Origin: Escherichia coli | Lineage (GTDB): Bacteria > Pseudomonadota > Gammaproteobacteria > Enterobacterales > Enterobacteriaceae | Length of the DNA: 64,000 nt | Reading direction: 5' to 3' (one strand) | Assembly (NCBI RefSeq): GCF_003334765.1 | Contig: NZ_QOWT01000002.1 | Shown here: piece by piece, positions 1 to 6,000 of the stretch | Layout of the letters: each line of letters starts with the position of its first letter | How positions within the stretch are numbered: the first letter of the stretch is position 1 | Program-made: the position numbers

Positions 1-3000
1 ACCGGACGACGGGCTCATAACCCAATCCATCCGGGCGGCTGCCACCGCAGGTGTTCTTCTCTGTTTTGTGGAGAAACTAACCGCCCCTACGGGGGCATTT
101 ATGGAAATGTAATTGACTCAATAATCGCCGGACGGTGAGGGCTTCCTTTTACCCGAATTCAGCGCGGTGCAGCGCATATACGTGGAGAACAAAATGTCAT
201 TTATTAAAACTTTTTCCGGGAAGCATTTTTATTATGACAGGATAAATAAAGACGACATCGTTATTAACGATATCGCGGTTTCCCTTTCAAATATCTGTCG
301 CTTTGCAGGACATCTTTCACACTTCTACAGTGTCGCCCAACATGCGGTGCTTTGCAGCCAGCTGGTGCCGCAGGAATTTGCTTTTGAAGCGTTAATGCAT
401 GATGCAACAGAAGCGTATTGCCAGGACATCCCCGCACCACTGAAACGACTTCTTCCTGACTATAAACGGATGGAAGAAAAAATAGACGCCGTAATACGTG
501 AGAAATACGGGTTACCTCCTGTTATGAGCACGCCAGTGAAATATGCCGATCTCATTATGCTGGCAACCGAACGCCGCGATCTCGGGCTTGATGATGGCTC
601 TTTCTGGCCTGTACTGGAAGGTATCCCGGCAACAGAGATGTTCAAAGTGATTCCACAGGCACCGGGCCATGCCTACGGGATGTTTATGGAACGTTTTAAC
701 GAGTTATCGGAGTTACGCAAATGCGCATGAATGTTTTCGAAATGGAAGGGTTTCTTCGTGGGAGATGTGTACCGCGAGATCTGAAAGTAAATGAAACAGA
801 TGCTGAATACCTGGCGCGTAAATTCGATGCGCTTGAAGCTAAATGTGCAGCACAGGAAAACAAAGTAATACCAGTGTCAGCTGAACTGCCACCAGCAAAT
901 GAAAGTGTTTTGTTATTCGATGCTAACGGAGAAGGCTGGCTAATTGGCTGGCGTTCTCTCTGGTACACCTGGGAACAAAAAGAAACCGGAGAATGGCAGT
1001 GGACATTTCAGGTCGGGGACCTTGAAAACGTCAATATCACTCACTGGGCAATAATGCCAAAAGCACCGGAGGCTGGAGCATAATGATCACTTTTACCGAC
1101 AAAGAACTGATTAAAGAAATTAAAGAGCGTATCAGCAGCCTTGACGTGCGAGACGATATTGAGCGCCGTGCTTATGAAATCGCACTCCTATCGCTGGAAG
1201 TAGAACCAGATGAACGCGAAGCTTATGAATTATTCATGGAAAAGCGTTTCGGTGACTTAGTAGATCGTCGGAGAGCAAAAAACGGCGATAACGAATACAT
1301 GGCATGGGATATGACTCTCGGTTGGATCGTCTGGCAGCAACGAGCTGGTATCCATTTTTCAACAATGTCACAGCAAGAGGTGAAATAATGGAGCCATACA
1401 GCCTCACACTCGATGAGGCCTGTTCATATCTGATAGAGCCGCTATATGGCGGTTTATTTTTGCCTGGAGAATTAAGATGACCGATACCAGCCTGATTCCT
1501 GAGAAAGAAGTGATGAACAAGCTCGGTGTTTCATCACGTCAGACAATCTGGAACTATACCAAACGGCACGGATTTCCGAAGCCAGTCAGAACCCACCCCA
1601 AATCATACCTTCGTGAAGCTGTTGAGGGGTGGATTCTTAACGGTGGCGTTAATCAGAAATGCTCCTGATGTGCCAGAACAATTTATCAGCGTGAAGCTCA
1701 TACACTTTGCGCTGAGCCTCTATCCAGTCGTGTTTATTGTATACTGACATTATCCCGCCAAGTTCATGACCGAGCATTCGCTCAGTAACATGAGGCTCGA
1801 CATTCATCTCGGACAGACGTGTAACAAGCGTTCTTCTGAAATCGTGTGTTCGCCAGTAACCTAGATCCATCCCTCCCCTTATTCTATTTACGAATCGGTT
1901 GGCTGCAGCGATGCTGATCGGCTTGCTTATGTCTTCTCCAGGGAAAAGAACATCATTATACGTTGTCATGGCCTTTTCGAGGAAAGGCTTAATTTGTTCG
2001 AAGATTGGACGGCGGATAACATTACCCATCTTGCTATGCTCTTTCGGTACGGTCCATACGTTTTCCAGCAGGTCAAATTCTGTCTTTTTTGCCAGCCTAA
2101 GCTCTGAGAGCCTCGCCCCCCACAGCATAAGCATCTGATGAAGTAGCTTATTTGACGTAGACGCACGGCTTCTTTCAATAGCAAGCCAAATCTTAGCCAG
2201 TTCGTGATACGACAGTACCCGATCCCCTACCTCAGCGCGGGAGCCGAAGTCCCTTGGTTGGATGCTCATAATTGCGCAACTATCTATCAACTGACGCCGC
2301 ATGCACCAACTTATTGCTGATCTTAGTTGACTTAGCACCTGCCTTGCTCGGCGTGGATTATCTCTTTCTTCTTCGGTAAGCAGGTCAACCCATTGCTTAA
2401 CCGTGATAGAAGATGCCGGACGATTAGGAAAGGCGTCATGCATGCGCTTCATAACCGTTGATCGGTAAAGTGCCTGGGTCTTTTCTCTGAGAGTTGTAGA
2501 GACGTAGTTGTCGAACCAGTAGTCGAGACACTGGGCGACCGTCATGGAGTTCTCCACCTTCTCTTCAAAATAAGTGCGTGGATCCGTTCCTGAGAAATAG
2601 AGCTTTCGCAAGTCAGCAGTGATCTGTCTGGCATCCTTCAAAGACAGGGATGGGTATCGACCAAGCCCAAGTCGATTAGGCTTGCCATGCCAGCGATAGC
2701 GGTACTGGAACTGGATGACCCCCTTCGGTGAAATTCGTACGCTGAGGCCATCGGCATCAGCCACTTCTTGTGGGCCCGAATATGGTTTACCATAAATAGT
2801 ACGCAGTTTTGTGTCGCTTATAGCCATAAATAATATTTGGTACGCTCAGAATTAATAGTTTGGTACACATCTGGTACACAATATCACATGGACAACAGCG
2901 CACAGTAAACAACTATATTTGACGTTCGTAGACATACTCAGGTTAAAAAAGGGTTGTTTTTCGAGTTATAACAGACAGTTAATTAACTACAGTGGACAAT

Positions 3001-6000
3001 GCTAGACAATGACAGGCACAGATAAACAACCTACCTTCCTCTTTCACGATTACGAAACCTTTGGAACGCACCCCGCGTTAGATCGCCCTGCACAGTTCGC
3101 AGCCATTCGCACTGATAACGAATTCAATGTCATCGGCGAACCCGAAGTCTTTTACTGCAAGCCCGCGGATGACTATTTACCCCAGCCTGGAGCAGTATTA
3201 ATTACCGGTATTACCCCGCAGGAAGCACGGGCGAAAGGAGAAAACGAAGCCGCGTTTGCCGCCCGTATTCACTCGCTTTTTACCGTACCGAAGACCTGTA
3301 TTCTGGGCTACAACAATGTGCGTTTCGACGATGAAGTCACACGCAACGTTTTTTATCGTAATTTCTACGATCCTTACGCCTGGAGCTGGCAGCATGATAA
3401 CTCGCGCTGGGATTTACTGGATGTTATGCGTGCCTGTTATGCCCTGCGCCCGGAAGGAATAAACTGGCCTGAAAATGATGACGGTCTACCGAGCTTTCGC
3501 CTTGAGCATTTAACCAAAGCGAATGGTATTGAACATAGCAACGCCCACGATGCGATGGCTGATGTGTACGCCACTATTGCGATGGCGAAACTGGTAAAAA
3601 CGCGTCAGCCACGCCTGTTTGATTATCTCTTTACCCATCGTAATAAACACAAACTGATGGCGTTGATTGATGTTCCGCAGATGAAACCCCTGGTTCACGT
3701 TTCCGGAATGTTTGGGGCATGGCGTGGCAATACCAGCTGGGTGGCACCGCTGGCGTGGCATCCTGAAAATCGCAATGCCGTAATTATGGTGGATTTGGCA
3801 GGAGACATTTCGCCATTACTGGAACTGGATAGCGACACATTGCGCGAGCGTTTATATACCGCAAAAACCGATCTTGGCGATAACGCCGCCGTTCCGGTTA
3901 AGCTGGTGCATATCAATAAATGTCCGGTACTGGCCCAGGCGAATACGCTACGCCCGGAAGATGCCGACCGACTGGGAATTAATCGTCAGCATTGCCTCGA
4001 TAACCTAAAAATTCTGCGTGAAAATCCGCAAGTGCGTGAAAAAGTGGTGGCGATATTCGCGGAAGCCGAACCGTTTACGCCTTCAGATAACGTGGATGCA
4101 CAGCTTTATAATGGCTTTTTCAGTGACGCCGATCGTGCAGCAATGAAAATTGTGCTGGAAACCGAGCCGCGTAATTTACCGGCACTGGATATCACTTTTG
4201 TTGATAAACGAATTGAAAAACTGTTGTTCAATTATCGAGCGCGCAACTTCCCGGGGACGCTGGATTATGCCGAGCAGCAACGCTGGCTTGAGCACCGCCG
4301 CCAGGTCTTCACGCCAGAGTTTTTGCAGGGCTACGCTGATGAATTGCAGATGCTGGCACAACAGTATGCCGATGACAAAGAGAAAGTGGCGCTGTTAAAA
4401 GCGCTTTGGCAGTACGCGCAAGAGATTGTCTAATGTGAAGCCTCCGCCGCTGGTACGGCGGAGGACAATGTTGAGTCAGGCTTTTTGAACGGTGATGCTC
4501 CACGCTGCATCGCCAATCTGCTGATAATCGGTGATGGCATGTCCTTCTTCTGCCGCCCACTGTGGGATTGCTTCAGTTGCCTGGGTGCAATCAAACTCAA
4601 TTACCAACTCATCGCCGCTGGCCATTTCTGCCAGTGCTGCTTTTGCTTCTATGAGTGGAAACGGACAGACCTGCGTCACCACATCCAGCTTTTTAATCGC
4701 CATCTTTACACCTTACTTAATTTGCCGCAGCAGTTGCCAGTCGCGCCTTACGCTGCGGTCGAACATACACAAGCCAGGACGCAGTCCAGACTCCGAGAAT
4801 CATAAATACAAGGCCAATCCAGCCCTGCCAGGTCATCATTGCAGTCATGACCAGTCCATTACCGATAGAGCAACCACCTGCAATGCTGGCACCGAAGCCC
4901 ATCAGTACACCACCTAACCCGCTACGTAATGTTGTTTGTGCATCAGCAGCGCGAACGCGGAACTCACGGCTCGCTTTGGCGGCAATAAATGACCCCACGA
5001 AGATCCCTAACACCAGGAAAACGCCCCAGTTAATGTATTTCACGTCACCCGCGACCAGAAATTGCAGAATATTGGCCGTTGGGGAAGTGATGCCTAACCC
5101 AAACATACGTCCGGTTGCTTCACTCAGGGGCCAGGCTAAAAGCGCAATCAAACCGATGAGTACAGCTGTGACAAAGGGATGCCAGCGTTTTTCAAACAGA
5201 ATATGAGCGATCCCGGTTCGGCGCGGCGGTAAGGTCGCGACTTTGAGTTTTGGCTTCTTCAACTCTTTCATCACCACCCAGAGCGTTATCACCAGCAAAA
5301 CGGCAACCAACGGCCACACAGACAAATTAAAAGTATCAGCAATAGAGTTATGTTCAGTAGTGTAGTGCTGCAAGGTTTGATTTAAACCACTGGCGTGTGG
5401 AGAACGCATCACCGCACTCATCACCATATAAGTGAAAAGCGCGATCCAACTGCCGATCAATCCCTCACCCGCGCGATACCAGGTCCCGGTGGCACATCCA
5501 CCCGCCAGAACAATTCCCAGCCCGAAAAGATACCCACCTATAACAGTACCAAGCCACGGGAACGCCCCGGCTTCGTAAGTCAGTAGGCCCGCCTGAATTA
5601 ACGCAAAAACCCCCACGCTTTGTACCGAAATTGCAATCAGCAAGGCGTAAAACATGCGATTATTTTTCGCGACATACATATCGCGAAAACCACCTGTCAG
5701 GCAAAAACGCCCACGCTGCATGACAAATCCCAGCAGAGCACCACAAATTAGCCCGCTTAATATCATTGAAAACATAAATTAATTAACCAGATGAATGTTA
5801 ATAAGGAAATTATTCATGACTGGTGGAATGCAGACCAATAACCAAATTCTCTAAATTAGAACAAATGGTTATTAATGAGGATTTCGATAAAAAAGAATAA
5901 AAAAACCGGAGCCAAATATTCATTCGACTCCGGTTGATTATTAGAAAAGATGATTATGCTACGTCTTCGTACTGCGGAACCGGGTTACGGAAGCTCTTGG

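Follow-up and report, generated by a model that had tools for sequence, protein, structure and literature searches.

What gave the sbcB gene (exonuclease I, ExoI) of this Escherichia coli genome an N-terminus unlike that of K-12, and what is the phage-like DNA that ends directly in front of it? The question is raised by the left edge of a 64,000-nucleotide stretch of contig NZ_QOWT01000002.1 (assembly GCF_003334765.1), hereafter the window, and our answer is that window 1–3054 is very probably the integrase-proximal (attR) end of a defective lambdoid prophage of ∼6.7 kb lodged in the sbcB site. Listing and direct reading of window 1–3300 gave six open reading frames (ORFs), five ahead of sbcB and sbcB itself as the sixth (Table 1). 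The int start codon ends at 2827 and the sbcB ATG begins at 3009, leaving a spacer of exactly 181 bp between two divergent genes. An initial annotation, made from the sequence of this DNA alone, had described an integrase transcribed away from sbcB at that distance, together with an AlpA/Xis-like gene and phage cargo, and each of these holds, positions included. Many E. coli chromosomes match window 1–3300 with 100% identity, and 74 of the 5426 complete E. coli genomes searched cover at least 80% of it (the coverage at which a genome was counted as positive, here and for the junction probes below); window 1401–3008, which comprises xis, int and the spacer, is 98–99% identical to the int modules of sequenced phages; the observation is therefore not due to chance.

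The attachment site answers the first half of the question. We aligned four kinds of site: the empty dacD–sbcB locus of K-12, the left junction of the dacD–sbcB locus of NZ_AP021935 (L001, used as the near-identical reference for the left part), the junction in the window, and the attP of mEp234 and Sf101. The initial annotation had placed the recombination core inside the first codons of sbcB, with the phage supplying a substitute 5′ end, and alignment of the junction to the empty locus located that core at window 3042–3054. K-12, mEp234 and Sf101 each have a single copy of the 13-bp sequence TTTCACGATTACG, and L001 has two (16385–16397 and 23042–23054), 6,657 bp apart. Read on the opposite strand, this sequence is the 13-bp attP core 5′-CGTAATCGTGAAA-3′ reported for phages 2851 and Sf101 (PMC4159516), and the GenBank record of mEp234 labels the same 13 bp ‘prophage attachment site (type 2851)’. 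The attP of mEp234 and Sf101 reads ...GACAATGACAG(G/A)CACAGATAAACAACCTACCTTCCTC-TTTCACGATTACG-CGCAATACCCC..., such that the free phage already holds ATGACAG[G/A]CACAGATAAACAACCTACCTTCCTC directly before the core. In the window attR, phage sequence stands to the left of the core and host sbcB to the right, and in the attL of L001 the K-12-type ATGATGAATGACGGTAAGCAACAATCTACCTTTTTG stands to the left and phage DNA to the right. The four-way alignment shows that attP equals the phage side of attR, the core and the phage side of attL (mEp234, Sf101), and that the attB of K-12 equals the host side of attL, the core and the host side of attR, which is the textbook pattern of attP × attB giving attL + attR. 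The doubled core, with attR in the window and attL at L001 16385–16397, flanks a split sbcB 5′ end.

The product of this exchange is a chimeric sbcB gene. SbcB starts MTGTDKQPTFLFHDY here and MMNDGKQQSTFLFHDY in K-12; residues 2–9 are remodelled, and elsewhere the two proteins differ only by four scattered allelic substitutions, which bears out the altered N-terminus and conserved remainder that had been noticed from the sequence. The start is fixed by an in-frame TAG two codons before the ATG, and the protein aligns with the exonuclease I structures PDB 4JRP and 1FXX from residue 5 to its end. Because attP carries a surrogate start codon plus 11 codons, the sbcB ORF stays intact. The two codons to the left of the core are TTC CTC in the phage and TTT TTG in the host, and these three nucleotide changes are all synonymous, so that the residues TFLFHDYETFG, including the Exo I motif DxE, stay as in the host. 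The chimeric protein thereby retains HDYETFG, including D15 and E17, which structural work on ExoI assigns as catalytic residues. Across two free phages, one prophage record of the Shiga toxin (Stx) 2c type and three chromosomes, the surrogate codons vary only by G/D at residue 3 and by a synonymous AAA/AAG. The conservation of the surrogate codons and of the spacer is consistent with selection for a functional SbcB in lysogens.

The module next to the junction points to the same phage family. The integrase matches Arm-DNA-bind_3 at residues 4–85 (1.9e-17) and Phage_integrase at residues 204–366 (4.8e-16) in Pfam, and PHROG 1 ‘integrase’ (4e-73). Its translation shows the motifs GARLSE, HDFRR, LGH and SVYNKH, that is, an arm domain together with the R..HxxR..H..Y set that defines a tyrosine recombinase. 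Compared with the Int of Sf101 it has 6 residue differences, and with that of mEp234 5; the int module is 97.6–98.9% identical in DNA to those of the Stx2c phages 2851 and 1717, the Shigella serotype-converting phage Sf101, and mEp234. The excisionase-like protein has only weak Pfam matches, to Phage_AlpA (0.0035) and HTH_17 (0.013), and is 100% identical to the product of the gene at the same position in Sf101 and mEp234; its gene and int are convergent, with a 20-bp overlap at the int 3′ end. This protein also has a weak PADLOC match to mad1 (3.7e-4), most likely a sign of generic helix-turn-helix similarity and not of a defence function. Direct TGGTACRC repeats are found three times in the int-proximal arm (2838, 2861 and 2872) and twice in the other arm (L001 16454 and 16466), with only three further copies elsewhere in the 64-kb window; they are candidate arm-type Int binding sites, consistent with the Arm-DNA-bind_3 domain of Int. 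Judged by its sequence, the int module is a member of the type-2851 sbcB-integrating family, every sequence-level defining feature of which was found.

To see how much of a phage is attached to this module, the left part has to be read in genomes that carry it. The window differs from NZ_AP021935 by 2 bases across 23.3 kb, and we infer that its source genome has the same left end. In NZ_AP021935, dacD lies just past attL, ∼6.9 kb upstream of sbcB, and only the 6,657 bp between the two cores separate the junctions. Eight coding sequences are annotated from dacD to sbcB in L001 (with overlapping names): tail fibre assembly, a truncated tail gene, three hypotheticals of which one is frameshifted, yfdR, yfdT, a helix-turn-helix (HTH) gene and int. 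The left part holds a tail-fibre assembly gene and a C-terminal tail-fibre fragment (PHROG 105 and PHROG 523) and a PHROG 3311 gene, and L001 19479–20000 is 98.7% identical to the orf33 region of SfV. The P′ arm on the attL side (∼530 bp) is 91–95% identical to 2851, 1717 and mEp234. Between this arm and the tail-fibre genes, where Sf101 holds oacB in the same orientation, lies an unannotated AT-rich stretch of ∼1.5 kb (L001 16900..18500; 28–32% GC), ∼1.5–3.1 kb ahead of the first base of the window. The ORFs in it are hydrophobic and broken up over three frames; the stretch gave no match in Pfam, PHROGs or PADLOC when tested for an O-antigen-modification, toxin or defence gene, and among 5.8 billion proteins it found two near-identical hypothetical proteins only (E. 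coli and Salmonella houtenae). The stretch looks degraded. Annotation and PHROG search of the near-identical genomes gave no head, lysis, replication, immunity, stx or oacB genes between the cores, PADLOC returned nothing meaningful, and neither stx nor any other toxin is among the annotated genes of the element. In two of the 74 genomes that cover window 1–3300 (NZ_CM135148.1 and NZ_CM135147.1) the remnant is interrupted by an element of the IS21 family (ISEc62 istA/istB), which stretches a 3.3-kb match to 5.4 kb.

The left part is common to 73 of the 5426 genomes and the window part to 74. These counts bear on the view that the window has caught the end of a lambdoid prophage that is complete, inducible and possibly Stx- or serotype-converting, and most of which lies further to the left. 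Such a prophage would be in keeping with the occurrence of the same int–attP module in complete Stx1a, Stx2a and Stx2c phages, in Sf101 and in mEp234, and with the standing of sbcB as one of four common Stx-prophage sites in O157:H7, where 26.9% of 346 strains have a prophage there, mostly an Stx2c phage (PMC8309913). That sbcB is a lambdoid and Stx-phage insertion site, which the initial annotation had named, is thus confirmed by the literature (PMC4159516, PMC8309913). A complete prophage is nevertheless very unlikely here: genomes identical to window 1–3300 have only 6.66 kb between the cores, 73 of the 74 genomes with the window part share the short left part, the window differs by just those 2 bases in 23.3 kb from one genome bearing the remnant, and no complete phage in the phage collection, where those with this int module are 38–65 kb long, covers more than 58% of window 1–3008 or has the yfdR-to-int arrangement. 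The features of an intact lambdoid or Stx-converting prophage are likewise missing between the cores in the near-identical genomes. What had been called a prophage is phage-derived and has its second att repeat, found in a near-identical genome, but there and in 73 genomes it is only a 6.66-kb defective remnant; the further expectation that the unseen part may carry important cargo failed, as the scan of the remnant in near-identical genomes gave no toxin or defence genes. The small size (6.66 kb), the int and AlpA-family genes at one end and the two intact att sites would also suit a phage satellite, or an island resembling a phage-inducible chromosomal island (PICI), built of int, alpA and a small cargo. 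This is less probable still, since the element lacks a primase/replicase and a packaging or capsid-redirection gene and does not qualify as a PICI, its truncated tail-fibre and tail-fibre assembly genes are typical of a deleted phage late region, its int–xis–attP module hardly differs from those of genuine temperate phages, and its alpA is convergent with int, as in those phages.

The four scattered substitutions in SbcB could be taken to mean that its N-terminus, too, is ordinary allelic variation, unrelated to the adjoining integrase. We give this reading next to no credence, and it is refuted by the free-phage attP, in which the variant 5′ end already sits, together with the way in which the two 5′ ends divide the complete genomes. 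With a 221-bp occupied-site probe centred on the attR core and the K-12 equivalent as the empty-site probe, the phage-type junction was found in 582 of the 5426 genomes (∼11%) and the empty type in 4841, which sum to all 5423 genomes with any match. The initial annotation had named an uninterrupted locus with the same sbcB 5′ sequence as the counter-example to look for; all 4841 uninterrupted genomes are of the K-12 type, and the 582 are complementary to them. Each occupied locus that was examined has the integrase gene alongside sbcB, and a 5′ end of the K-12 type persists at attL, as read at one left junction (L001). Two points do count against a defective prophage at this site: the window begins inside the element, with attL and the left 3.6 kb read in other genomes, and the 181-bp spacer offers no convincing sigma-70 promoter for sbcB, the expression of the chimeric gene being predicted only.

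Taken as the end of a defective prophage, the locus would have arisen in two steps. Int-mediated site-specific recombination of a phage attP with attB in sbcB codons 13–17 (K-12 numbering) would come first. To the left of TTTCACGATTACG, the phage attP brings its own start codon and 11 codons that mimic the host 5′ end, so recombination swaps the first codons of sbcB and all DNA upstream of them for phage DNA and yields full-length ExoI with its DxE untouched. Later, a single large internal deletion very probably removed nearly all of the phage; it would have begun within the tail-fibre gene, taking its N-terminal part (joint near L001 19480), and reached the early-left region. Excision of the remnant is still conceivable because its Int is only 5–6 substitutions away from those of active phages, its Xis does not differ from theirs and neither att site is damaged; with their ORFs intact, Int and Xis may still be able to carry out integration and excision.

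The genes between the left edge of the window and int add detail to this picture. The yfdR-like ORF encodes 178 residues from 194, or 187 from a possible GTG start at 167, and its protein had no PADLOC match. The stub ORF at 1388..1480 had no PHROG match; its tblastn matches, both marginal, are to the beginning of xis in SfV (86.7% identity, E = 0.03) and in P22 (73%), and phage matches to the int module mostly start at window 1398–1403. This hints that the stub is probably a mosaic joint, at which a 2851-type xis–int–attP cassette would have replaced one of the SfV/P22 type.

Table 1. Features at the left edge of the window, with the basis on which each was assigned
Feature	Position	Strand	Basis or remark
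Identity core TTTCACGATTACG (13 bp), attR crossover region, encoding F-H-D-Y at the Exo I motif	3042..3054		Exact in attB, attP, attL and attR
attR phage arm, equal to the int–sbcB spacer	2828..3008		98% conserved across six phages and lysogens
Chimeric, intact sbcB, exodeoxyribonuclease I, 474 residues	3009..4433	+	NCBIfam NF008746 exodeoxyribonuclease I equivalog, 814.8 bits (cutoff 260), residues 5-473 covered
Phage-supplied start codon and first 11 sbcB codons (MTGTDKQPTFL)	3009..3041	+	Same in Sf101 attP; mEp234 has D for G at residue 3
Tyrosine integrase of the 2851/Sf101/mEp234 type, sbcB-targeting; intact ORF, 392 residues	1649..2827	-	Pfam, PHROG and phage identity
AlpA/HTH_17-type excisionase-like gene, 63 residues	1477..1668	+	PHROG 66 ‘excisionase and transcriptional regulator’, 1.9e-8
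30-codon stub ORF (MEPYSLTLDEACSYL...)	1388..1480	+	First 15 residues like the N-terminus of SfV/P22-type Xis
yfdT-like phage protein without known function, 101 residues	1083..1388	+	PHROG 660, 7.2e-30; RefSeq yfdT
Phage hypothetical protein, 120 residues	721..1083	+	PHROG 583, 7.8e-81; counterpart labelled DUF551 in some phage records
yfdR-like HD-domain 5'-deoxynucleotidase, early-region accessory gene	194..730	+	PHROG 318 ‘deoxyribonucleoside 5' monophosphate phosphatase’, 3.8e-109; RefSeq yfdR
Phage early-region DNA	1..166	+	Contains the end of an ORF that a near-identical genome lists as a frameshifted hypothetical (L001 19793-20112)

Since the chimeric sbcB is preceded by phage DNA alone, its transcription must start in phage sequence, and we infer that sbcB is now served by a promoter there; the promoter of int must lie in the 181-bp spacer as well. 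Of the phage-supplied promoter that the initial annotation had thought probable, this much stands; a consensus scan of window 2700–3100 found neither promoter nor terminator, and a relaxed hexamer scan gave only weak 8–9/12 matches, the best being TTAAAA-18-TATAAC at 2943–2972. At attL, the host keeps the native sbcB promoter together with the first 16 codons, now part of a 20-codon stub, MMNDGKQQSTFLFHDYAQYP with its stop (L001 16349..16411). This stub faces the P′ arm of the phage and the moron slot. Read-through from the host sbcB promoter at attL into phage cargo is possible. The att-proximal moron slot, in the same orientation as the stub, holds orf17–oacB in Sf101 and the AT-rich orphan ORFs in the remnant. 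A more far-reaching idea, which we hold to be rather unlikely, is that integration at sbcB amounts to a promoter exchange, the native promoter and 20-codon stub driving the att-proximal moron slot and the 181-bp phage arm driving sbcB. If true, the lysogenic-conversion genes of the sbcB-phage family would be under a host housekeeping promoter and the level of ExoI would be set by the phage, with possible consequences for Red/Erf-type recombination and prophage stability.

Further into the window, outside the element, the O86-family O-antigen polymerase gene wzy (22946..24273, minus strand) is split into overlapping ORFs at 22946..23758 and 23725..24273. In NZ_AP021935 it is also annotated as frameshifted with an internal stop; a substitution at 23144 and an indel near 23756 distinguish the two copies. 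The split could be a real inactivation, which would make this O86 strain rough or semi-rough, or an assembly error at a homopolymer.

Among known systems, the closest are the modules of phages 2851, 1717, Sf101 and mEp234, which share with this one the integrase (5–6 residue differences), an identical Xis/AlpA, the core, the surrogate 5′ end, the arm repeats and the target. The module sits here on a 6.66-kb remnant with other early-left cargo (yfdR, PHROG 583 and the yfdT-like gene), and the stx or oacB of that group is not in the remnant. The logic is that of phage 21 and e14 in icd, where attP carries a substitute gene end that is mostly synonymous and the lysogen keeps a functional gene. 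Phage 21 and e14 replace the 3′ end of icd, whereas the sbcB element replaces a 5′ end, including the start codon and upstream regulatory DNA, so that the expression signals must also come from the phage. CPS-53/KpLE1 of K-12 is likewise a small defective element that keeps an integrase and a few early genes, including yfdR and yfdT homologues; unlike the remnant in sbcB, it has a different integrase and attachment site, the latter being argW.

The integration site, the core and the integrase have all been published, so the finding itself is already known, and describing the altered SbcB start as a marker across the population follows from it as a corollary and is not a discovery; the importance of the finding is little beyond correct annotation. 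For the lineage of the window, it means that the sbcB site holds only a harmless 6.66-kb remnant and not an Stx or serotype-converting phage. For E. coli more widely, the MT(G/D)TDKQP start that stands in place of MMNDGKQQS in ∼11% of complete genomes is explained by integration of type-2851 phages, and this N-terminus is a reliable scar of that integration.

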